Positions 52,927 through 64,000 of a stretch of DNA of 64,000 nt are shown piece after piece. The position numbers and the translations under genes are program-made. The notes below the pieces were generated by a model. That model was not told the origin of the DNA. It did not search any database and was given only the letters and a program-made list of their open reading frames with translations. The stretch spans positions 50,031 to 114,030 of the forward strand of contig CACWZP010000011.1 of assembly GCA_902765395.1 (NCBI GenBank). Direction: 5' to 3'. Source of the DNA: an uncultured Eubacteriales bacterium (GTDB lineage Bacteria > Bacillota > Clostridia > Christensenellales > Aristaeellaceae). Each line of letters opens with the position of its first letter. Within the stretch, counting starts at the first letter, position 1.

Positions 52927-53178
52927 AATATGATCCTCGTATTATAGAGTAGTAGTTTATTAAGCTCCTCTCCAAGAGCTGTGCTACACTGTTGGGGATG
53001 CTGTGGATTGGTTTAATGTTCCTACCGCGAGACGGTTTCAGAAAGGCTCCAACCACAGCCCCTTGTCGGAATGTTAATCAGTTAGATACCGGGCAGACGG
53101 TTGATGTAGAACGAGGTTACAAGGGCAAGCGGTACTGTGGTCCCCAGCAGCATCAATAATACAATGGAGGGTTGCTTC

Positions 53179-54354
53179 ATGATCTACGTCGGTATCGATG
53201 TTTCCAAGGACAAGCATGACTGCACAATCGTTTCCTCAGACGGAGAAGTCCTGGCGAATGTGTTCACCATTCAGAACAACCTGGACGGCTTCAAGCTGCT
53301 TTTTCAAAGGATCAAATCCGTAGCACCTGATTTGAGCAAAGTAAAAGTAGGACTCGAGGCCACCGGTCATTACAGCTACAACATCCTCGGATTTCTCCTC
53401 GACAAAGGTCTCGCCACCTTCGTCATTAACCCGCTTCACACCAATCTGTTCCGTAAATCTACCAGTCTTCGCCGGACCAAAACAGACCGTGTCGATGCGC
53501 GCACCATTGCAGCTATGATGATGTCCGGTGTAGTCCTCTCGTCCTACACGGCTATATCATACCACAATGAGGAGCTAAAGTCACTATCCAGATACAGATT
53601 TGACAAGGTCCGAGAGCGTGCCAGGCTAAAGCAATCCGTTTCCCGTCTGGTCAACATTCTCTTCCCGGAATTGGAACGGCTCGTTCCCACGCTCCACATG
53701 ACATCCGTCTATGCCCTGCTTGCCGAACTGCCCGGCGCGAAACAGATCGCTTCCTGCCACCTCGCACATCTGACCAGTCTGCTCTCAACTGCTTCCAAAG
53801 GTCGCTATGATCGCTCCAAGGCCGTTGCACTTCGGGATGCTGCTCGGCAATCCATTGGCTCTGTCATGCCCGCCAAGTCTCTTGAACTCCAGCATACCAT
53901 CCGCCTGATCCGTGAACTGGATGCCGAAATCAATGAGATTGAAGCCGCCCTAAAACAGATGATGGACGAAATCGCTTCTCCCATCCTCACCATCCCCGGT
54001 ATCAGCTATCGCATGGGCGCGATGATCCTCGCTGAGATTGGTGACTTCTCAAGGTTCGCCTCGCCTGACAAACTGTTGGCCTATGCCGGTCTGTCACCGT
54101 CTACCTATCAGTCCGGCAAGCTGGACAACGCCTATGCGCATATGGAAAAGCGCGGCTCTCGTTACCTTCGTTACGCGCTCTACAATGCTACAAAGTACGT
54201 CTGCATCTGGGATAACTCATTCGCTACCTACCTTGCCAAGAAACGCGCTGAGGGTAAACACTACAACGTCGCTATTTCTCACGCTGCAAAGAAACTGGTT
54301 CGCCTGATCTTTGCTTTGCAACGCTCCGGAAAGCCTTACTGCTCGGTGACGTAA
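53179..54354 (+). CDS. IS110-family transposase (DEDD / Transposase_20)
   Basis: N-terminus MIYVGIDVSKDKHDC...GLEATGHYS. C-terminal part AGLSPSTYQSGK...RYLRYALY. Confidence 0.92.
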   Translation: MIYVGIDVSKDKHDCTIVSSDGEVLANVFTIQNNLDGFKLLFQRIKSVAPDLSKVKVGLEATGHYSYNILGFLLDKGLATFVINPLHTNLFRKSTSLRRTKTDRVDARTIAAMMMSGVVLSSYTAISYHNEELKSLSRYRFDKVRERARLKQSVSRLVNILFPELERLVPTLHMTSVYALLAELPGAKQIASCHLAHLTSLLSTASKGRYDRSKAVALRDAARQSIGSVMPAKSLELQHTIRLIRELDAEINEIEAALKQMMDEIASPILTIPGISYRMGAMILAEIGDFSRFASPDKLLAYAGLSPSTYQSGKLDNAYAHMEKRGSRYLRYALYNATKYVCIWDNSFATYLAKKRAEGKHYNVAISHAAKKLVRLIFALQRSGKPYCSVT

Positions 54355-54412
54355 CCCAGCTATTCTCTTCGGAGCCTGAGCCTTCATATTCGCACTGAGC
54401 CGGCGAAGCGTA

Positions 54413-54536
54413 CCCTTGGCAAACCGAAGCATTCAAATGCTATACTGTCTTGGCGAGGGCGCCTGCGTCTGTTTTGCTATTCCCTCCGTCGCCCTCGCTG
54501 CCTTTGCTCCAGCATTTGAATGCTGTTTGTCAAGGG
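54413..54536 (+). ncRNA. Candidate structured RNA in the IS110 3' flank (bridge/seek-RNA-like)
   Basis: Long-range helix CCCTTGGCAAAC..AGCATTCAAATGCT / AGCATTTGAATGCTGTTTG.CAAGGG encloses an inner GGCGAGGGCG / CGCCCTCGC helix. The assignment is purely structural. Confidence 0.3.
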
Positions 54537-54621
54537 CGGCGGGGCTCCTTTGGAAAAATCTTCATTTTCCTCCTTTTCCCCCTTGACATTTAATAGTTAG
54601 TCTTTCTGATATGAAATCAAG

Positions 54622-56244
54622 CTATTTCTTCTTCTTTTTCTTCGGCGCCTTCACCGCCGGGATGGAGCCGGTCCGGCCCAGCTCGGCCTTCGCCCGCTGC
54701 TTCTCCGCGGCCAGGCGCTTCAGCTTCTCGCCCCGTGCCCGCAGGGAGGCCACGGCCAGTATGGTGACCATCACGATCAGCGCCGCGCCCGCGATGATCA
54801 GCAGGATGTAGAATGTGGCGCTGTTGCCGCCCAGCTTCACCGACTCGCCCTCCAAGTCCATGCCCGCGCGGCCCACCTGCTCGGGGCTGACGCCGTCGGG
54901 GACGATGGCCACGTCGATGGGCTCGGTGGACACGGTGCGCTGGCGGCCATCGGCGTCGGTGTAGTTCAGGCAGAACACGAACTGGTCGTCTTCCGTCACC
55001 TCGTAGCCCGCGCTGCACACCGAGGGCGCGCCCGTGGGCACCACAGCCAGCCGGCGGATCTCGCCCCGGTTCACCTCGTAGAGCAGCGCGTCCCTGGCCA
55101 TCACGTTGCCGTCGTTGGCGATGGTGAAGTCGAAGGTCACCTGCCCGGCCCGGTTGATCCTGGGCGTGCGGGGCACGGCTTCCAGGCTGATGGCCACCCG
55201 CGGCTCGTCGCTCTCGCCGGACAGCGTCAGCGTCTCCGTGCGCAGATCCAGCGCCTCGCCCGCGCCGCTCATGCCCGTGACGCGCCAGCGATACTCGCCC
55301 TCGCCCCGCAGGGGATAGGTGTGGCTCACCTCCACCGGCGCGCCGCCGCTGGGCAGCGTCAGGGCGTCGGCGATCACCCCGCCGTACACGTCGTCCAGCA
55401 CCGTCACGCCCGTGTAATCCACGTTGCCGGTGTTGGTCAGGATCAGTACCGCGTCCGCCGTGCCGTCCTCGAAAACCGTGTGCCCCACGGAGAAGGACAG
55501 GTCCAGCGCGCTGTCGGCCATGCCGATGGGCAGCGCCTCCAGGGCCTTCGACACGGTCTCGCCCGAGGGCCCGGCGTACTCCAGCACCGGTGCGGACTGG
55601 GCCGCCTCGTTCAGCGTCACGCGGCTGATGAAGGTCTTGGCCTCGCCCACGTCCAGCCGCTCCAGCCGCCCGGTGAAGTCGCCCAGGCCGTCCCGGATGC
55701 GCAGCGTCGTCAGGGCCACATTGCCGGTGTTCACGATGCGGTAGGTCACCGTCACCAGCCCGCCCGCGCTCACGTAGTTCGAGGACAGCTGGCGGGTGAA
55801 ATCCACCGCCGGCAGCGCCTCGCCCCGGGCGATCCGGGCGCTGAGCGGATAGTTGATCTTCGCCTCCCCGGCGATCATCGGGTCGTGGCTGACGGTGTAG
55901 GTGATCTCCCCGGCGGAGAGCTCCTCCTCCGTCACGGCGTGGGGCCGCACCAGCGTTTGGCTCTCGCCCGGGCCGATCTGGCCGATGGGCTCGGACAGCT
56001 GGCCGTCCGCCGACGACAGCGTCACGTTGCGCACGGGCCGGTCCGTGACGTTCTCGATCACGAAGGTCATGGTCACGTCCTGGGGCGACACCATCACGCC
56101 GGGCTGCACCGTGAATTCGATGGCCAGGCTGCTGGCCGTCTCGCCGCTCTCCGCCATGCCGGTAAACAGGCAGCACAAAACCGCCAGCGCCCCCATCAGG
56201 GCCGCCAGATGCCTGAACCGCCGCGCGTTCGCCATAGCTTCCAT
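54622..56244 (-). CDS. Cell-surface protein with four DUF11/CARDB-like repeat domains and C-terminal TM anchor plus lysine tail
   Basis: Signal-like N-terminus. Recurring modules (VTMTFVIENVTDRPVRNVTL, VTVTYRIVNTGNVALTTLRI, LILTNTGNVDYTGVTVLD, FDFTIANDGNVMARDALL). C-terminal hydrophobic segment and KKKKKK tail. Confidence 0.8.
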   Translation of the reverse strand: MEAMANARRFRHLAALMGALAVLCCLFTGMAESGETASSLAIEFTVQPGVMVSPQDVTMTFVIENVTDRPVRNVTLSSADGQLSEPIGQIGPGESQTLVRPHAVTEEELSAGEITYTVSHDPMIAGEAKINYPLSARIARGEALPAVDFTRQLSSNYVSAGGLVTVTYRIVNTGNVALTTLRIRDGLGDFTGRLERLDVGEAKTFISRVTLNEAAQSAPVLEYAGPSGETVSKALEALPIGMADSALDLSFSVGHTVFEDGTADAVLILTNTGNVDYTGVTVLDDVYGGVIADALTLPSGGAPVEVSHTYPLRGEGEYRWRVTGMSGAGEALDLRTETLTLSGESDEPRVAISLEAVPRTPRINRAGQVTFDFTIANDGNVMARDALLYEVNRGEIRRLAVVPTGAPSVCSAGYEVTEDDQFVFCLNYTDADGRQRTVSTEPIDVAIVPDGVSPEQVGRAGMDLEGESVKLGGNSATFYILLIIAGAALIVMVTILAVASLRARGEKLKRLAAEKQRAKAELGRTGSIPAVKAPKKKKKK

Positions 56245-56382
56245 GCTCCTCGTGTCTCGTGTGGATTTGCGCGCCGAACCCGCCGGCCCACAAAATCCCT
56301 ACTCTATTTTATTGCATTTTGGCACGCCCTGTCAAGCCGTATTCGCACATCCCCTTCCTGACGAAAATTTACATTCCGACTA

Positions 56383-56411
56383 TTGCATTTCCCGGCCAAA
56401 CATGCTATAAT
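56383..56411 (+). promoter_or_regulatory. Near-consensus promoter upstream of the repeat-tRNA unit
   Basis: TTGCAT (56383-56388), a 17-nt spacer, then TATAAT (56406-56411). Confidence 0.65.
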
Positions 56412-56443
56412 ATCTTCTGTTCGATGCGATGCATCGACCGCGT

Positions 56444-56776
56444 GGGGCATTAGCACAGTTGGCTAGAACGAACCGTCGTTTCTACATCCCAATGACGCTG
56501 ATAACACCCACGAAACAGTTTGTCGAAACTGTACAAAATTCGGCAGGATAATTTGGGGCATTAGCACAGTTGGCTAGAACGAACCGTCGTTTCTACATCC
56601 CAATGGCGCTGATAACACCCACGAAACAGTTTGTCGAAACTGCACAAAATTCGACAGCATAATTTGGGGCATTAGCACAGTTGGCTAGAACGAACCGTCG
56701 TTTCTACATCCCAATGAAGCTGATAACACCCACGAAACAGTTTGTCGAAACTGTACAAAATTCGGCAGCATAATTA
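56444..56776 (+). repeat. Three 111-bp tandem units, each starting with the first 23 nt of tRNA-Ala
   Basis: Units start at 56444, 56555 and 56666. Only 6 positions vary between units. The array abuts the intact tRNA at 56777. Confidence 0.97.
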
Positions 56777-56853
56777 GGGGCATTAGCACAGTTGGCTAGC
56801 GCGCTACATTCGCATTGTAGAGGTCACCGGTTCGAATCCGGTATGCTCCACCA
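56777..56853 (+). tRNA. tRNA-Ala (anticodon CGC)
   Basis: Sequence is GGGGCATTAGCACAGTTGGCTAGCGCGCTACATTCGCATTGTAGAGGTCACCGGTTCGAATCCGGTATGCTCCACCA. It has the G3-U70 identity pair, anticodon loop TT-CGC-AT and an encoded CCA. The D-stem has one A-C mismatch. Confidence 0.9.
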
Positions 56854-56859
56854 ACGACG

Positions 56860-56895
56860 ACAGGACTTGATTGAAAGATCAGGTCCTGTTTTTTG
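56860..56895 (+). terminator. Intrinsic terminator after tRNA-Ala
   Basis: 13-bp stem ACAGGACTTGATT-gaaa-GATCAGGTCCTGT (two G-U pairs) followed by TTTTTT. Confidence 0.88.
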
Positions 56896-56903
56896 TATTA
56901 TGA

Positions 56904-56932
56904 TTGCAACCGGGCTTTAACTTTGGTATAAT
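56904..56932 (+). promoter_or_regulatory. Consensus-like promoter of the helicase-methyltransferase operon
   Basis: TTGCAA, a 17-nt spacer, then TATAAT. AGGAGG RBS before ATG 56972. Confidence 0.65.
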
Positions 56933-56971
56933 TACTATATATTGCCTGTAACGTAGACAGGAGGAGTATCG

Positions 56972-59854
56972 ATGATGAAGTTTGCACCAGGAATGCGCGT
57001 CATCATCCGTGATGAAGAATGGATGATTCGGAAGTGTGATTCCAATAGCTTTAAAACCTATACACTGCAATGTGTTGGGCTGTCTCCTCTAGTCAGAGAT
57101 AAGACTGCGTACTTTATTAGCGACCTTGAGAAGGTCGTGGTTATTGATCCTGCCAAAACTACGCTGGTTCCCGACAAATCCTCTCGTTTTGTGCGTTCAC
57201 GCCTGTTCTTGGAGAGCCAGTGGCGTCAAAAAATCCCCACTGATGCCAAGCTGCACATCGGGCATCATGCCGTAATGGATGTCATGCCCTACCAACTGGA
57301 GCCTGCGGCCATGAGCCTTGCCCGCCCACGCCAGCGGATTCTGATGGCAGACGGCGTCGGTCTGGGCAAAACGCTTGAAGCAGGTATTCTGATCAGTGAG
57401 CTCATCGCTCGAGGGAAAGGGCGTCGCATTCTCGTCGTCACGGTTAAGAGCATGATGGCCCAGTTTCAAAAGGAGATGTGGGAGCGCTTTTCCATTCCCT
57501 TGATCAGCCTGGATTCTGCAAAGATTCAGCGCATCCGGCGCGATCTTCCCAGCAATCATAACCCCTTTCACTATTACGATAAGACCATCGTCTCCATCGA
57601 CACGATCAAAAGGGATAGCGAATACCGAGTCCACCTGGAGCATGCCCGGTGGGATATCATCGTGATCGATGAAGCTCACAATGTAGCCAAGCGTGGCAAC
57701 AGCAATTCGCAGCGCGCTCGACTGGCAGACCTTCTCTCCAGCCGGAGCGACACCCTTATCATGCTTTCTGCTACGCCTCACGATGGCAGCGCGCGTTCCT
57801 TCGCTTCTCTGATGAACATGTTGGATCCCACCGCCATTCCCGATCCAGATAATTACACGGAGCAGGATATTAAGGACAATGGCGATGACATCAAGGGCCT
57901 GTTCATACGCCGCTTCAAGAAGGACATTCAGGATCAGGCAATGGGAGGCTTCAAGGAAAGGCGCATTGCCGAAGTGCCCTGCACCGCAACGCCAAAGGAG
58001 GAAGCGGCGCTGGAGGCTTTCCTGACCTACGAATCCCTGCTTCCAAAGACAGAAAATGGAAAGCTGCGAGACATGACGTTCAAGAAGGCCATGTTCTCCA
58101 GCCCTGCCGCGTGCCTGAAATCCGTTCAGGCGCGCATGGGCCGTCTGGCGAAGGAAGGCACAGAGGATGCCTTAAAGGAGCAGCATGCTCTCGGCATTCT
58201 GGAGCGTGCGCTTCAGGACATCAGCCCACAGGACTTTTCACGCTACCAGGAATTGCTGAAGCTTCTCCGCGACCCGGAATACGGCTGGAATTATCGGGCG
58301 GCGGATGACCGCCTGGTCATTTTCACCGAACGTATTGAAACCATGCGCTGGCTGGCCGAGCAGCTTATACAGGATCTTCACCTTCCCGCCGCAGCGGTTC
58401 AGCGGTTGCACGGCGGTATGAGCGATATCGATCAGCAGAAAATCGTAGAAGAATTCGGCCGTGATGAAGCGCCTGTACGCATTCTCGTTGCCAGCGATGT
58501 TGCCTCTGAGGGCATCAACCTGCACTATCTCAGCCACAGGATGATTCATTTTGACATCCCGTGGTCGCTGATGGTGTTCCAGCAGCGGAATGGCCGCGTG
58601 GATCGCTATGGGCAGAAGGTGTCGCCGGACATCCGATACATGGTTACACGATCCACCAATGAGGAGATTCGGGGCGACATGCGTATCCTCCAGGTTTTGA
58701 TCCGCAAGGAAGCGGAGGCTAACAAGAACATTGGCGACGTGGGTGCGCTCATGAACCTGTATGATCAGGACGCCGAGGAGCAGCTGACCTATCGCGCCAT
58801 GGAGGAGAGCACCGCAGAAGCCTTCGAGCAGGAATTGACGATCGATGAAAGTGCTTCCCTGGAGGATTTGTTCGCGGATCTTCTTGACGACACGTCCACG
58901 GCGGCGGATGATTCTTCCCCCAGCGCTTCCACAGTCGCAGAGACGGTGGACGATTACACCCTGATGTCTGACGGAGCGTTCCTGGAAGGCACTGTTCGTC
59001 TGCTGGCCCAGGAGCGACCCTACAAAATACAGCCCCTTCACGACACACAGGGCTTTGAGGTGCGCTGGACACAGGACATGCAGCGGCGCTTTCGCAATGT
59101 TCTGCCGCCGGAGGCCACGCCCAGCATCGACGACTGGCTGATGTTGTCCTCTGACAAGGGCTTCGTGGCGCGGGAAAACCGCCGGAGCCTGCAAAACGCG
59201 CTGGAGGAAGACAGCTGGCCGAAGGTGCACTATCTGTGGCGTCAGCACCCCATCATGCAGTGGGCCAACGATAAAGCCGGGCAATTCTTCGGCCGGCAGG
59301 AAGCGCCGCTGGTTGGTGTGCCTTCACTGAAGAGCGGAGAGGTCGTGTTCTGCATCGCAGGTACCATCCCCAACAAGCGGTCTGCCCCCCTTGTGGATGA
59401 GTGGTTCGGGGTTCATTTTGTAGACGGGCGATTTGATCGCCTCATCCCCATGGATGAAGTGATTGCTATGACGCACTTCAATGACGCGAGTCAGCCCAAT
59501 TCCGATCGCGTGGCCGATGAGGATGCGCAGCGGGTCTCCCGCCTTCTTCCAGAGGTCGTGCAGCAGGCAAAGGCGCACATGACAGCCACCTACAATACAT
59601 ACAGGGCTATGAACGAGGATGCCATCTTTGCGGAGTACGGCAAACTGGAGGCGCTGAAGGCCCGACATGAAAGCCATCTGCAGGAGAAGTATGAACAGCT
59701 CTCCTTCTTTGGCAAGGAAAAACGCCAGGATGCTGAGCAGCGCCACATCGATCAGATATTTGATGAGTTTTACGCATGGGTTGACGAGAGCATGGAAATT
59801 GAGAATGTTCCCTATATCCGCGTCGTCGCAGCCTTCATGGGGGTAGAAGCATGA
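56972..59854 (+). CDS. SNF2-family helicase (DISARM DrmD-like)
   Basis: Motif I MADGVGLGKT, motif II VIDEAHNV, motif III LSATPHDG and motif VI QQRNGRVDRYGQ. Its stop overlaps the next ATG (ATGA). Confidence 0.9.
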   Translation: MMKFAPGMRVIIRDEEWMIRKCDSNSFKTYTLQCVGLSPLVRDKTAYFISDLEKVVVIDPAKTTLVPDKSSRFVRSRLFLESQWRQKIPTDAKLHIGHHAVMDVMPYQLEPAAMSLARPRQRILMADGVGLGKTLEAGILISELIARGKGRRILVVTVKSMMAQFQKEMWERFSIPLISLDSAKIQRIRRDLPSNHNPFHYYDKTIVSIDTIKRDSEYRVHLEHARWDIIVIDEAHNVAKRGNSNSQRARLADLLSSRSDTLIMLSATPHDGSARSFASLMNMLDPTAIPDPDNYTEQDIKDNGDDIKGLFIRRFKKDIQDQAMGGFKERRIAEVPCTATPKEEAALEAFLTYESLLPKTENGKLRDMTFKKAMFSSPAACLKSVQARMGRLAKEGTEDALKEQHALGILERALQDISPQDFSRYQELLKLLRDPEYGWNYRAADDRLVIFTERIETMRWLAEQLIQDLHLPAAAVQRLHGGMSDIDQQKIVEEFGRDEAPVRILVASDVASEGINLHYLSHRMIHFDIPWSLMVFQQRNGRVDRYGQKVSPDIRYMVTRSTNEEIRGDMRILQVLIRKEAEANKNIGDVGALMNLYDQDAEEQLTYRAMEESTAEAFEQELTIDESASLEDLFADLLDDTSTAADDSSPSASTVAETVDDYTLMSDGAFLEGTVRLLAQERPYKIQPLHDTQGFEVRWTQDMQRRFRNVLPPEATPSIDDWLMLSSDKGFVARENRRSLQNALEEDSWPKVHYLWRQHPIMQWANDKAGQFFGRQEAPLVGVPSLKSGEVVFCIAGTIPNKRSAPLVDEWFGVHFVDGRFDRLIPMDEVIAMTHFNDASQPNSDRVADEDAQRVSRLLPEVVQQAKAHMTATYNTYRAMNEDAIFAEYGKLEALKARHESHLQEKYEQLSFFGKEKRQDAEQRHIDQIFDEFYAWVDESMEIENVPYIRVVAAFMGVEA

Positions 59855-62800
59855 GCATGGATCTGACGGGCATCAAAAACCGGAATGAATACTATACCAA
59901 CCACTATTTTGCCTCCATCTTTGAGGAGAATGCCGCCGGTACCATAAAAGCCTGGCGGGACGCGGCACAGGGCACGGAGCAGCGCACGCCCTGGGCCTTG
60001 CTGCGCGACGCTGGCAAGCGGTATTTCATGATTCGCAATCGTCTGGAGCGCAGGCGCGGCAATGATGCCCTGGAAAGAGGAATCGCGGAGATCGCCCGCG
60101 AACTGCTGTCTGCCCTGGGCTATGACACGGCAGCCTTGAAACCGGAGCTCGTCGAGCTCCCCGGCATGAGCCTGGTCAAGGTGCCGATTGCCATGGAGGT
60201 CAACAAGCCAAACGGCGCGCCTCTGCTCTGGACCATCGTGGTTTCACCCAGGTGGGAGGAAGAACTGTCTGTCGAAAATGAAGATGAGGCAGACAGTGCC
60301 GATATTTTGAACTACATCCCCTTCGCGGCGGACCTGCGGCCCGACCATGACATCCCCTTCGACGGTGAAGCGCTGATTCGCGTGCCGATAGAAGAGCTGC
60401 TGGGGAAACTTTTATATGACTTGGACGAGAGCCCGCGCTGGATCCTACTGATTAACGACAGCCAGATCGCCCTGATCGACCGCAACAAGTGGAATGAAAA
60501 GCGCTTTCTGCTGTTTGATCTGGACGAGATATTTGGGCGCAATGAGGAATCGACGCTGCAGGCCATGGCGGTGCTGCTGCACGCCGAATCCCTCTGCCCT
60601 GCGGACGGCGGATGCCTGTTGGACGTGTTGGACGACAACAGCCACAAGCATGCCTCCGGGGTTTCGCGTGATCTCAAATATGCCCTGCGTCAGTGCATCG
60701 AGATTCTGGGCAACGAAGTTGTCTACGATATGAAGGAGCGCCAGCATGTCGCCGTGTTTGGCCGTGATCTGGCGAACGAGCTCACGATACAGTGCCTCCG
60801 CTACATGTATCGCATCATGTTCATGCTGTTCATCGAGGCCAAGCCGGAATTGGGCTATGCCCCCATGAAGGCACAGACCTATGAATCCGGCTATTCCTTT
60901 GAGAGCCTGCGGGAGATCTGCGAACAGGCCGAGGGCGATGGCGAGATCGACGAGGAAGGCAGCTTCCTGAAGACCAGTCTGGACAAGCTGTTCAGCCTGG
61001 TTTATAACGGCTTCCCTGCCGAAAGGGATCTGATCCACTATTCCGATTCCCAGAAGGGCGTATTTGTCATCGACCCGCTGAAGGCCCACATCTTCGATCC
61101 TGAGCGCACAGCGCTGATCGAAAAGGCCCACCTGCGCAACGGAAAGCTCATGCAGATCATCAACCTGATGAGCTTGTCCCGCGGTGGGCGTGGCCAGCGC
61201 CGCGGCCGCATCAGCTATTCCAACCTGGGCATCAACCAGCTGGGCAGCGTGTATGAGGCGCTGCTGTCCTACCGCGGCTTCTTTGCCGAGGAAGACCTGT
61301 ACGAGGTGAAGAAGAAGGGCGACAAGGTGGACGACCTGGACGTCGGCTACTTCGTCACCCAGGCGGAGCTGGATCAATATGACGAGGACGAGCGCGTGCG
61401 CGTGGACGAGAACAACCCCGTCTCCGACCTGCGCATCCATCCCAAGGGCGAGTTCATCTACCGTCTGGCCGGGCGCGAGCGCGAGAAGTCCGCGTCCTAC
61501 TACACGCCGGAGGTGCTGACGCACTGCCTGGTGAAGTATGCCCTGAAGGAGCTGCTGGAGGGCAAGACTGCCGACGAGATCCTCCAGCTCACCATCTGCG
61601 AGCCCGCCATGGGCAGCGCCGCGTTCCTGAACGAGGCGGTCTCCCAGCTGGCCGAGGCCTACCTGACCCGCAAGGAGCAGGAGATCGGCGAGAGCGTGCC
61701 CCACGACAAGCGCGTGCAGGAGCTGCAGCGCATCAAGATGTTCATCGCTGACCGCAACGTGTACGGCATCGACCTGAACCCCATTGCCGTGGAACTGGCC
61801 GAGGTCTCGCTGTGGCTGAACTCCATCTATGAGGGCGGCTATGTGCCGTGGTTCCGCACGCAGATCGTCAACGGCAACAGCCTGATCGGCGCGCGGCGGC
61901 AGTGCTATACCCTGAACCAGGCGCGGGCGCAGGCGGGAGCGGCGGTGTGGTACAACAACGCGCCGGAGCGCATTGAGCCCGGAAAGCAGCGCAAGTTCTC
62001 CCGGCAGATCTATCATTTCCTGCTGGGCGACCCCGGCATGTGCGCCTACACAGACAAGGTTATCAAGTCCCTGGAGCCGGAGAAGATTGCCCACATCAAG
62101 GATTGGAACAAGAAGTTCACCAAGCCGCTGACGGAGGACGAGTGCGACCGCGTGCTGGAGCTGTCCTCCGCGGTGGACCGGCTGTGGGACGAGCACGTGC
62201 GCATCCGCGGCGAGATCAGCCGCAAGACCACTGACCCGCTGTCCGTATGGGGCCAGCCGGAGGACACGCAGCACCATCCGCTGACCATCCGGGAGAAGGA
62301 CCGCATTTACGACAGCCTGTACCTGACCGAGCACCAGCAGAACGCGGGCCCCTATGCCCGTTTGAAGGCGGCCATGGACTACTGGTGCGCGCTGTGGTTC
62401 TGGCCCATCGACCAGGCCGAGGAGCTCCCCACGCGGCAGGAGTTCCTGTTCGACATGTATGCCCTGCTGGGCGTGGACATCGTCAACGCCTCCGCAAAGA
62501 AGAAGCAGTCCATCGGGCAGATCGGCATGTTCGACGATGAATTCTATGACAACATGTACAGCCTCTTCGACACCTATGGCGAGGTGAACCTCGACCAGCT
62601 GCGCAGCCTGTTCCCGCGCATGCGCATCGCCGACGAGGTGGCGAAGCAGCAGCACTTCTTCCACTGGGAGCTGGAGTTTGCGGACGTGTTCGCGGAGCGG
62701 GGTGGGTTTGACCTGGTGATCGGTAATCCGCCATGGATCAAAGTTACATGGGAAGAGAAAGATATATTATCAGAAGCTCAGCCCATTTTTGCTGTTAGAA

Positions 62801-64000
62801 AGACAACAGCGAGTCAATTACTGAGTCTTAGAGGAAATGTCATTTCTCATCGTGAGTATAGGATAGATTACATAAATGAGTATTGTAGTACATCGGGACA
62901 ACAAAACTACATTAATGCTATCCAGAATTATCCGGATTTGAGAGGCTTACAAGGGAATGTATATGAATGCTTTATTCCGCAGTCATGGACATATGCAAAC
63001 ACGAAGGGTGTGTTCGCTCTAATTCATCCTGAAAGTGTTTTCAATGAACAAGGAGGATATATTCTTAGGCAAAGCTTAAACGCAATGCTCCGAAAACACT
63101 TTCGATTCAGCAATGCCTTGAAGCTTTTCCCAGATGTACACACAAGCCGAGAGTTTGGCTTAAATGTATATTGCAACTATCCGCGATACAGTTTTGACCA
63201 GATCGTTAATCTCTATACACCTACAACTATTGACGAGTGTTACGAGAATGATGACCACGCTCCTGTATACATCCGCAATGAGGACGGAACAAGGAATATA
63301 AAAGGGTCAAGAGAAAGGATCACTGTAATAGGAAAAAGAGAATTGATGCTGTTCGCAGATCTGCTTGATGCATCTATGGAATGGCGACAGGCACGATTGA
63401 TGGCTGTTCATACAAAATCAAATATGGAGGTATTGGAACTATTTTCAAGAATTAAAACCAGAATTACTACAAGACAAGAACGTCTTAGTGTTTCCATGCT
63501 TTGGGATGAAACGAACGCACAGAAAGACAAGACGATTGTTAGAAACGTCCATTTTGGAACCCCGGAGGATACTATTCTGTCGGGAGCACACATAGGCTTA
63601 GCGAATCCACTGTTTAATTGTTCTAACGCTGGGTGTAAGAACAACAACGATAATACAAGTGTTGATTTAACAGCAATACCCAAAAACTATATTCAGCGGT
63701 GCAATTACTCTCTAGTTGATCGGAAAGTCTATGTATCAAGGATTCCTAATACTCCGTGGGGAAAACTGAATACCGATTGCTATAGGATAGGCGCAAGAAA
63801 AATGGTAGACATTGAAGGAGAACGTACTGTGGTTGCTGCACTTCTACCACCTGCGTTTGCACATACAAACGGTATCATTAACTTTGCTTTTGACGATATA
63901 AAAGAAACAGTTACGATGCTTGGGGGATTTTGTTCGCTTCCTTTTGATTTCTTTATAAAGTCTTGCGGCAAAGGAAATTTGCAAATGAATACTGCTGGAA
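59851..64000 (+). CDS. Very large N6-adenine DNA methyltransferase (Eco57I/PglX/DrmMI-like), 3' end beyond window
   Basis: Not in the supplied ORF track. I translated frame 1 by hand from ATG 59851 to 64000 (1383 codons) and found no stop. Motifs are ISYSNLGINQLGSVYEALL, SYYTPEVL, CEPAMGSAAFL (motif I) and FFHWELEFADVF...GFDLVIGNPPW (motif IV, 62725-62736). Confidence 0.88.
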   Translation, partial: MSMDLTGIKNRNEYYTNHYFASIFEENAAGTIKAWRDAAQGTEQRTPWALLRDAGKRYFMIRNRLERRRGNDALERGIAEIARELLSALGYDTAALKPELVELPGMSLVKVPIAMEVNKPNGAPLLWTIVVSPRWEEELSVENEDEADSADILNYIPFAADLRPDHDIPFDGEALIRVPIEELLGKLLYDLDESPRWILLINDSQIALIDRNKWNEKRFLLFDLDEIFGRNEESTLQAMAVLLHAESLCPADGGCLLDVLDDNSHKHASGVSRDLKYALRQCIEILGNEVVYDMKERQHVAVFGRDLANELTIQCLRYMYRIMFMLFIEAKPELGYAPMKAQTYESGYSFESLREICEQAEGDGEIDEEGSFLKTSLDKLFSLVYNGFPAERDLIHYSDSQKGVFVIDPLKAHIFDPERTALIEKAHLRNGKLMQIINLMSLSRGGRGQRRGRISYSNLGINQLGSVYEALLSYRGFFAEEDLYEVKKKGDKVDDLDVGYFVTQAELDQYDEDERVRVDENNPVSDLRIHPKGEFIYRLAGREREKSASYYTPEVLTHCLVKYALKELLEGKTADEILQLTICEPAMGSAAFLNEAVSQLAEAYLTRKEQEIGESVPHDKRVQELQRIKMFIADRNVYGIDLNPIAVELAEVSLWLNSIYEGGYVPWFRTQIVNGNSLIGARRQCYTLNQARAQAGAAVWYNNAPERIEPGKQRKFSRQIYHFLLGDPGMCAYTDKVIKSLEPEKIAHIKDWNKKFTKPLTEDECDRVLELSSAVDRLWDEHVRIRGEISRKTTDPLSVWGQPEDTQHHPLTIREKDRIYDSLYLTEHQQNAGPYARLKAAMDYWCALWFWPIDQAEELPTRQEFLFDMYALLGVDIVNASAKKKQSIGQIGMFDDEFYDNMYSLFDTYGEVNLDQLRSLFPRMRIADEVAKQQHFFHWELEFADVFAERGGFDLVIGNPPWIKVTWEEKDILSEAQPIFAVRKTTASQLLSLRGNVISHREYRIDYINEYCSTSGQQNYINAIQNYPDLRGLQGNVYECFIPQSWTYANTKGVFALIHPESVFNEQGGYILRQSLNAMLRKHFRFSNALKLFPDVHTSREFGLNVYCNYPRYSFDQIVNLYTPTTIDECYENDDHAPVYIRNEDGTRNIKGSRERITVIGKRELMLFADLLDASMEWRQARLMAVHTKSNMEVLELFSRIKTRITTRQERLSVSMLWDETNAQKDKTIVRNVHFGTPEDTILSGAHIGLANPLFNCSNAGCKNNNDNTSVDLTAIPKNYIQRCNYSLVDRKVYVSRIPNTPWGKLNTDCYRIGARKMVDIEGERTVVAALLPPAFAHTNGIINFAFDDIKETVTMLGGFCSLPFDFFIKSCGKGNLQMNTAG

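Follow-up and report, generated by a model that had tools for sequence, protein, structure and literature searches.

Tandem repeats that carry a copy of the end of a neighboring stable-RNA gene were described in Escherichia coli as TLRs, which comprise rtT in the tyrT operon and rrA, rrB, and rrF located after 5S rRNA (PMC8144298, citing Egan and Landy, 1978; Rudd, 1999). The TLR repeat and the stable-RNA gene lying immediately upstream of it have identical 3′ ends over 18–19 bp, and it was proposed that the copy of the 5S rRNA 3′ end is a signal for RNase E and that the end of RrB is defined in this way (PMC8144298). In plastids of Solanaceae, Brassicaceae, and other groups, one to seven partial tRNA copies are found 5′ of the functional trnF gene (PMC3786074). 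They are 32–73 bp long, contain mainly the anticodon, T- or D-domain, usually without acceptor-stem residues, and are considered pseudogenes; their number varies by lineage, which was attributed to illegitimate or unequal recombination (PMC3786074). Here we describe an array of three 111-bp tandem units, each starting with an exact copy (the tag) of the first 23 nt of a tRNA-Ala(CGC) gene, located directly upstream of this gene in a 64,000-nt stretch of DNA (the window) from an uncultured Eubacteriales bacterium (assembly GCA_902765395.1, contig CACWZP010000011.1, positions 50,031–114,030 of the forward strand). Our literature searches found no bacterial account of 5′-tagged repeats upstream of a tRNA.

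The array is similar to TLRs in that its repeats lie inside a stable-RNA operon, with up to three full units per locus here vs. one to five in TLRs, and in that an exact short copy of the end of an adjacent gene is present (23 bp vs. 18–19 bp). TLRs are co-transcribed with their operon, and co-transcription of the units described here is predicted from sequence. In contrast to TLRs, however, the polarity is mirrored: it is the 5′ end of the downstream gene that is copied, and it is found at the 5′ end of the unit. In addition, no sequence or Rfam similarity to rtT was detected, assuming that a TLR RNA is represented in Rfam. Given the mirrored tag and the lack of homology, we regard the array not as a member of the TLRs but as a mirror-image variant of their kind. 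It differs also in its occurrence in another phylum (Clostridia), in the tag being held in a dedicated hairpin, within a fold that shows compensatory changes, and in the enzyme implied, which would be one that makes 5′ ends (RNase P) in place of RNase E. By analogy with E. coli TLRs, we propose that the tag is a portable 5′-processing signal. The interpretation put forward here, to which we give about an even chance of being correct, is that the units are structured non-coding RNA modules of ~110 nt, co-transcribed with tRNA-Ala(CGC), with the tag probably reused as such a signal.

Analysis with TRF detected a single tandem array at positions 56443–56799 of the window (period 111, 3.2 copies, 96% matches). 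The 23-mer GGGGCATTAGCACAGTTGGCTAG, corresponding to nt 1–23 of tRNA-Ala(CGC), opens each of the three units as well as the tRNA gene (Table 1) and has no further copy in the window, which agrees with the exact 111-bp period given in the initial annotation of this DNA. The unit array (56444–56776) abuts the intact tRNA gene directly. As had been noted, the three units differ at six positions only (columns 52, 53, 89, 100, 104, and 111). The array was also rightly set apart from CRISPR, since the 88-nt cores that follow the tags would have to be the spacers, yet all of them are homologs (96% within the window) and none is unique. The possibility of an assembly artefact had been raised; as the segment 56300–56960 is matched exactly in four independent metagenome assemblies (L001, L002, L003, and L005), the array is real and can be resolved. 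Many short-read contigs break off at the array or the tRNA, or within them (L004, L006, L007, L012, L015, and L063–L068). Unit counts taken from assemblies are thus lower bounds, and arrays are probably under-represented in metagenome-assembled genomes.

For the distribution of the family, a scan with the 23-mer was run on one genome per GTDB species and returned 27 genomes, all of uncultured rumen or gut Clostridia. Each of them holds the same tRNA-Ala(CGC) gene, and in 11 of them at least one unit, on the same strand as the tRNA, separates this gene from the leader. Scanning metagenomes with a core-only pattern added four more arrays, all joined to tag and tRNA, along with one chance match (L035). 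Searches with nhmmer and a covariance model over 267 kb of related loci found units nowhere but at this position and on this strand, and no tags were found at other tRNAs in the window and the fetched loci. Full units number from zero to three per locus, occasionally with a truncated one in addition. Type A units are 111 nt long and type B units 110 nt; the two are ~70% identical in the 88-nt core, yet their tags are identical. Across species, cores of type A are 94–100% identical and those of type B 85–95%, while the upstream flank shows 72–87% identity. Rarer forms include a divergent type C (L012), a hybrid (unit 2 of L040), and truncated or internally duplicated units (L017, L020, and L021). 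Arrays mix these types in varied order (B,B,A′; B′,B,A; B,A; A,B; A,hybrid,A; A,A,A). Crossovers inside units are evidenced by the hybrid, in which a B-like 5′ domain is joined to an A-like 3′ hairpin. In L025, a decayed, internally deleted remnant of ~43 nt lies between the leader and the first full unit, and its tag has ~7 mismatches; the tag is thus able to diverge once a unit degenerates.

The tRNA-Ala(CGC) gene itself was identified by ARAGORN at the array-adjacent position in 44 fetched loci, with identical sequence wherever the gene was complete. Its D-stem contains a non-standard A12-C23 pair (window positions 56788 and 56799), flagged in the Rfam alignment and common to every complete fetched copy. 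The end of the tag was placed at G22, one base short of the mismatched C23.

The units do not resemble tRNAs or other RNAs of described families. A cmscan of positions 55800–57300 against all 4227 Rfam families (E ≤ 10) gave no match inside the units, the tRNA and chance hits outside being all that was returned, and the intact gene was the sole tRNA detected by ARAGORN and Rfam. The statement that the 88 nt do not align convincingly with the rest of the tRNA proved correct: the similarity of the core to the remainder of the tRNA, on either strand, or to the reverse complement of the tag was at the level of shuffled sequences (p 0.18–0.75). A tandemly amplified, decayed tRNA pseudogene, which had been offered as one reading of the array, is therefore rejected, with no tRNA-like unit, no similarity between core and tRNA, and variation concentrated in internal loops. 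A coding role was likewise dismissed, as stops are present in all six frames and types A and B differ by 1 nt in length.

As types A and B differ by indels, an RNAalifold consensus on a MAFFT alignment was poor for the 5′ domain, and realignment with a covariance model left the register unfixed. Each unit was for this reason folded separately (first 8 and then 27 distinct units, by independent minimum free energy, MFE, folding). In all 27 units the tag is predicted to form the 5′ strand of an imperfect hairpin of 63–66 nt, with 17 of its 23 nt paired. Three helices involve the tag: P1 (G1–G3 with CCC) and P2 (A6–C11 with GCUGAU), both found in 27/27 units, and P3 (G15–G19 with CCAAY), found in 26/27. 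The hairpin tip is variable, with AACGA/TCGTT in type A and AGAAC/GUUCU in type B. Indels that distinguish types A, B, and C are confined to internal loops, leaving P1–P3 preserved. Since the tag is invariant, changes opposite to it can only be one-sided; in P2 and P3 nearly all of these keep the pairing (UA to UG, UG to UA, GC to GU), with the exception of the B′ and L020 variants, in which position 15 is left unpaired. Within type B, the tag, AACGA, GCTGATAAC, the linker, and GCUGAUAAC vary little (0–0.33 minor alleles per column), in comparison with 2.1–2.75 in the internal loops.

The second hairpin of the unit differs in sequence between types, with the stems UCGAA/UUCGR in A, UAGAUU/AAUCUA in B, UAGGU/ACCUA in B′, and a wholly different CGGAGGU/ACCACCG in C (L012). 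Five core pairs are present without any unpaired cell in the 25 units that have letters there, and three pairs have changed on both sides (CG/AU, AU/UA, and AU/GC via GU). Pairing reaches 92%, vs. 22–43% with slid partners. We consider this covariation to be good, although not overwhelming, evidence for the predicted stem. Thus, of the Rfam and covariation checks suggested in the initial annotation, the former gave no match to the units, while the latter brought out compensatory changes in the second hairpin. The many conserved G-U pairs argue for an RNA of the tRNA strand. Two small hairpins had been described within the 88 nt: AACGA/TCGTT is real and forms the tip of the long hairpin, whereas ACAGTTT/AAACTGT is not conserved. 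The latter stem (ACAGUUU/AAACUGU in RNA) and UUUGUA/UACAAA were rejected, as each shows four to five independent uncompensated changes; the overlapping TCGAA/TTCGG is supported instead. An H-type pseudoknot (ACAG with loop CUGU) showed no covariation, its outer pair is broken in eight units, and we do not claim it.

The initial annotation placed a near-consensus promoter upstream of unit 1. The extended −10 element (TGcTATAAT) bears this out, but the −35 element (TTGCAT) is weak and fits the consensus at only 3/6 positions, which is why a promoter scanner did not list the site. The motif TTGCWT-17-TGnTATAAT is kept in nearly all related loci, and the distance from the −10 element to the first tag has a median of 32 nt in loci with units vs. 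33 nt in loci without them. This constancy places the units precisely at the boundary of the native leader with the tRNA. The terminator announced 3′ of the tRNA was recovered as a strong intrinsic terminator with a T run and is the one terminator-like site on the + strand between the promoter and the next gene, with none inside the array. With one conserved promoter and one terminator, units and tRNA do share a single promoter-to-terminator interval, as had been stated. An internal promoter candidate (TCGAAA-18-CATAAT) was discarded, being weak, with a −35 element that is not conserved in type B, and too near to +1. At the extreme 5′ end of the predicted tRNA precursor there is a leader hairpin (GUUCGAUGC-GAU-GCAUCGA). 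It is kept across species (leaders in L008–L068) and variants of its stem still pair (GAUGU/ACAUC, GACGC/GCGUC). Judging from its sequence, it may serve as a 5′ stabilizer or processing element of the pre-tRNA.

In the mechanism that we propose, transcription from one promoter would give a single precursor composed of the leader, the modules, the tRNA, and the terminator. Each module would fold independently, its tag copy being not folded as in the tRNA but paired with a dedicated 3′ strand (CCAAY...GCUGAU...CCC); a second hairpin of 5–7 bp with the conserved loop CUGYACAAAA would follow, and the AU-rich tail CAUAAUUU would end the module. Each module-module junction copies the leader-tRNA junction, in that CAUAAUUU is followed by GGGG..., with G1 predicted to be paired at the helix base and an unpaired A following the helix 3′. 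Since the junctions are alike, the enzyme making the tRNA 5′ end would also be expected to cut between modules. RNase P would be the first candidate, and an AU-specific endonuclease of the RNase Y/E type the alternative. Such cutting would free ~110-nt RNAs along with the tRNA, and the number of modules would be altered by unequal homologous recombination. Among the readings offered initially, processed small RNAs with a tRNA tag thus appear to fit best, in view of cross-species conservation, a shared predicted fold, compensatory changes, and the one promoter-to-terminator interval.

A stronger version would make the locus a natural polycistronic array of small RNAs (sRNAs), in which the 23-nt tag held in a hairpin recruits RNase P, ~110-nt RNAs act in trans, and recombination sets their dosage. 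The conserved unpaired GAAACAGUUUG, the loop CUGYACAAAA, and the tail CAUAAUUU would then be target- or protein-binding sites. We put this version forward tentatively and hold it to be improbable. A functional sRNA, 3′ETS-leuZ, is known to be derived from a tRNA-operon transcribed spacer via the tRNA-processing machinery (PMC8144298). It differs from the units described here in being a single 3′ trailer with no tRNA tag and no repeats, and in that its expression and targets have been established.

Several points weigh against the interpretation of the units as processed RNA modules. No unit is found in 16 of the 27 related species, including some close relatives (an approximate count, as some of the unit-less contigs end at or near the tRNA), so that any function must be dispensable. 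Truncated, duplicated, and hybrid units (L017, L020, L021, and L040) are what is expected of unstable repeats, and recent horizontal spread, not strong constraint, may explain why type A is near-identical across species and type B is variable. Only a small number of independent events (types A, B, B′, and C) underlie the compensatory changes. Single-unit MFE z-scores are modest (−0.7 to −3.2), and folding energies differ slightly between the forward strand (−26.6 kcal/mol) and its reverse complement (−25.3 kcal/mol). The tag hairpin has no T-arm-like element and would be an atypical RNase P substrate. Finally, transcription of the units, cleavage at their junctions, and a trans-acting role of the released RNA are steps that we infer.

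Change in the array could be followed at the population level on contigs fetched via orthologues of the DUF7507 protein encoded upstream. Contigs with an identical protein (P0001) and an identical leader carry different arrays, namely B,A,A (L061 and L062), B,A (L066), and B,A with an internal duplication (L020); the DNA downstream also differs in L066 from the other P0001 contigs. Copy number and content therefore shift on the strain time scale. The DUF7507 protein of the window, where the array is A,A,A, is 95% identical to P0001. In relatives further removed, the array is A,hybrid,A (85%) or a single B (77%), or units are lacking (78% and 59%), and at 67–70% identity there is no tRNA at this site. 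In these last loci (L041, L047, L048, and L055–L060) SpoIIP adjoins the DUF7507 gene and the whole tRNA-Ala(CGC) cassette is absent, which makes the cassette itself a deeper insertion/deletion polymorphism. The comparison of homologues recommended in the initial annotation thus shows copy number to vary both between and within species, and the array to occur with differing downstream DNA. The change in copy number fits unequal homologous recombination between units, as judged from the sequences compared.

These data bear on the view that the array is non-functional, unstable DNA. A tRNA 5′ copy, truncated and with 88 bp attached, would have arisen once and been amplified and lost by unequal crossing-over and gene conversion, and its apparent conservation would result from recent spread and homogenization. 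In line with this, one population shows B,A,A vs. B,A vs. B,A*, related species range from zero to three full units, sometimes with a truncated one, aberrant units occur, the majority of related species have none, and type A is near-identical in divergent species, as after a recent transfer. The plastid trnF arrays (PMC3786074) provide a precedent: there too, tandem partial copies in variable number lie just 5′ of a functional tRNA. However, plastid copies are regarded as unconstrained remnants, whereas here nt 1–23 alone are copied, exactly, and the other 88 nt are unrelated to the tRNA, without trace of its remaining part, and appear structure-constrained. Variation within units is far from uniform (0–0.3 vs. 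2–2.75 minor alleles per column), the inter-type indels fall in internal loops while P1–P3 are kept, and the second hairpin stays paired through three double changes and the different type C stem, with no disruptive change. Free decay, which had been named as an outcome that would deprive the array of interest, is at odds with this pattern. Moreover, tags are identical between A and B in spite of cores that are only ~70% identical, and the tag of the L025 remnant has diverged. We consider the unstable-DNA view unlikely.

Alternatively, the modules may be transcribed but not released, as a purely cis-acting leader that tunes the maturation or level of tRNA-Ala(CGC). For instance, the strand complementary to the tag could be a competitor for the real tRNA's 5′ strand; slower 5′ processing due to the modules would be another option. 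The complementary strand of the last module is indeed located between two identical tags, that of the module and that of the tRNA itself, the units are confined to this leader, and their variable number would suit a tuning element; in designed constructs, leader structure can gate RNase P cleavage (PMC8925977). Yet in every unit this strand has a potential pairing partner in the tag upstream of it within the same unit, and transcription reaches that tag first. A switch would leave the second hairpin and the conserved linker and loop without an obvious role, and no ligand or sensor is suggested by the sequence. A cis-acting leader is in our opinion quite unlikely.

The upstream side of the locus is syntenic in many genomes (DUF7507 gene, phosphoglucomutase, and transketolase). 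The downstream side is not, and differs between species and even within one population. In the lineage of the window it is occupied by an island of lower GC content (Table 1) with an SNF2 helicase (960 aa), an MmeI/Eco57I-like methyltransferase (1617 aa), and two TIR-domain proteins with internal 79–95% repeats, which together look like a defense locus. Other cargo found at the same spot includes HsdM (L027), TatD-like and QueC-like proteins (L025), and serine recombinases (L010 and L011), and from these sequences we take the tRNA 3′ flank to be an island hot spot. As the downstream island differs between species, the units travel with the tRNA and not with the island. The array had been placed at the border of a defense-type island; a link between the two is not supported, the same units being found elsewhere next to quite different downstream DNA. 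The insertion sequence (IS) reported nearby does exist and is of the IS110 family, its transposase carrying DEDD_Tnp_IS110 and Transposase_20 domains, but it is absent in close relatives and was rejected as linked to the array. It is inserted in a short intergenic region between the phosphoglucomutase and DUF7507 genes, which in L061 and L040, lacking the element, is ~30 bp long. A bridge RNA could be located in the non-coding ends of the element. Comparison of L066 with L025 and L061 showed that a variant of the tRNA-proximal A unit, TTCGACGGCATAATTT, tracks the type of downstream terminator and island, and not the upstream flank. The extent of the array with the tRNA (up to ~400 bp) and its near-identity across species suggest that it serves as a homology arm in island exchange.

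This neighborhood brings to mind site-specific recombination. Elements inserted by integrases that target tRNA genes are kilobase-sized and integrase-bearing, and it is normally the 3′ part of the tRNA that is found duplicated at their far end. The array has in common with such att duplications an exact short copy of part of a tRNA gene beside an island hot spot, but differs in that the 5′ part is repeated, every 110–111 bp, with no integrase and no cargo. The units could in principle be a DNA recombination module, that is, a miniature attP-like cassette that a site-specific recombinase inserted at tRNA nt 23. Insertion might have proceeded via a folded single strand, as with integron attC or CTX-phage attP, and the tag would be the identity segment. 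The exact, sharply bordered 23-bp identity block does resemble an att core, a conserved block (CATAATTT-tag-AACGAAC) reaches past the tRNA-derived part, the imperfect inverted repeat could fold as DNA too, unit types are mixed in differing orders (B,B,A′; A,B; A,hybrid,A), and serine recombinases are present at the hot spot in some genomes. On the other hand, no recombinase is consistently adjacent: the units have no coding capacity, and a scan of open reading frames (ORFs) around the array yielded a single recombinase, the IS110-type transposase located 2 kb upstream. The tag is the 5′ part of the tRNA, whereas the variable island is found on the 3′ side, and no repeat of a tRNA 3′ segment was found in the window or in 11 kb downstream in L001. 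No exact core or tag was present in IMG/VR, no blastn match was obtained in phage or plasmid collections, and metagenome core matches came only with tag and tRNA attached, apart from the chance match in L035. A mobile or viral origin was accordingly rejected, and the att-like scar of a miniature element suggested at first is left weak, with no consistently linked recombinase and no donor core found in these collections. The conserved G-U pairs suit an RNA of the transcribed strand and become A-C mismatches on the other strand, and unequal homologous recombination accounts for mixed arrays and hybrids without a dedicated enzyme. We regard the recombination module as very unlikely.

In its layout, the locus recalls also the ToxI arrays of type III toxin-antitoxin systems, in which a promoter, tandem non-coding repeats, and a terminator are followed by a downstream gene, and the repeats are cut to monomers. 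ToxI units are ~36 nt long and always followed by an endoribonuclease toxin gene. Promoter, tandem non-coding repeats, and terminator are common to both, but a ToxI-like array was rejected, since here a tRNA follows the repeats and the next protein genes vary (SNF2 helicase, HsdM, TatD-like protein, recombinases, and others).

Table 1. Positions of the array, its signals, and neighboring elements in the window.
Feature	Position	Strand	Details
Promoter	56383..56411	+	−35 TTGCAT 56383–56388, 17-nt spacer, extended −10 TGcTATAAT 56403–56411; read from sequence
5′ leader hairpin TCGATGC-GAT-GCATCGA	56421..56437	+	Directly after predicted transcription start
Unit 1, type A, 111 nt	56444..56554	+	Tag 56444–56466; cmsearch 128 bits
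Unit 1, Domain I	56444..56509		Long hairpin
Unit 1, Domain II	56522..56544		Hairpin
Unit 1, tail			GATAATTT
Unit 2, type A, 111 nt	56555..56665	+	Tag 56555–56577; cmsearch 130 bits
Unit 3, type A, 111 nt	56666..56776	+	Tag 56666–56688; tRNA-side end CATAATTA; cmsearch 129 bits
Intact tRNA-Ala(CGC)	56777..56853	+	ARAGORN; Rfam RF00005, 61.3 bits
Intrinsic terminator	56859..56896	+	14-bp stem and 4-nt loop at 56859–56890, then T run
IS110-family element	52928..54601		
IS110 transposase ORF	53137..54354	+	
Downstream island	56972..64000		L001 10001–21264

For the TLRs of E. coli, known since 1978, no function has yet been accepted, the sole mechanistic idea being that the copied end of a stable RNA is a reused processing signal. 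What is new here is an unrelated family, from another phylum and of opposite polarity, with a 5′ tag upstream of the gene, and comparative evidence is added that the tag is held in a conserved structure. In practical terms, the array fragments short-read contigs at a genomic-island hot spot, and rumen Clostridia can be typed at the strain level by its copy number. If the released RNAs acted in trans as in the stronger version of our model, the family would form the 5′ equivalent of the TLRs of E. coli, and engineered tRNA-guide RNA arrays would have a natural analogue in it. If RNase P did cut the modules, they would represent a new class of natural non-tRNA substrates of this enzyme. If the modules are cut at their tags, the use of stable-RNA end tags as portable processing signals would be a general principle, with two independent inventions.

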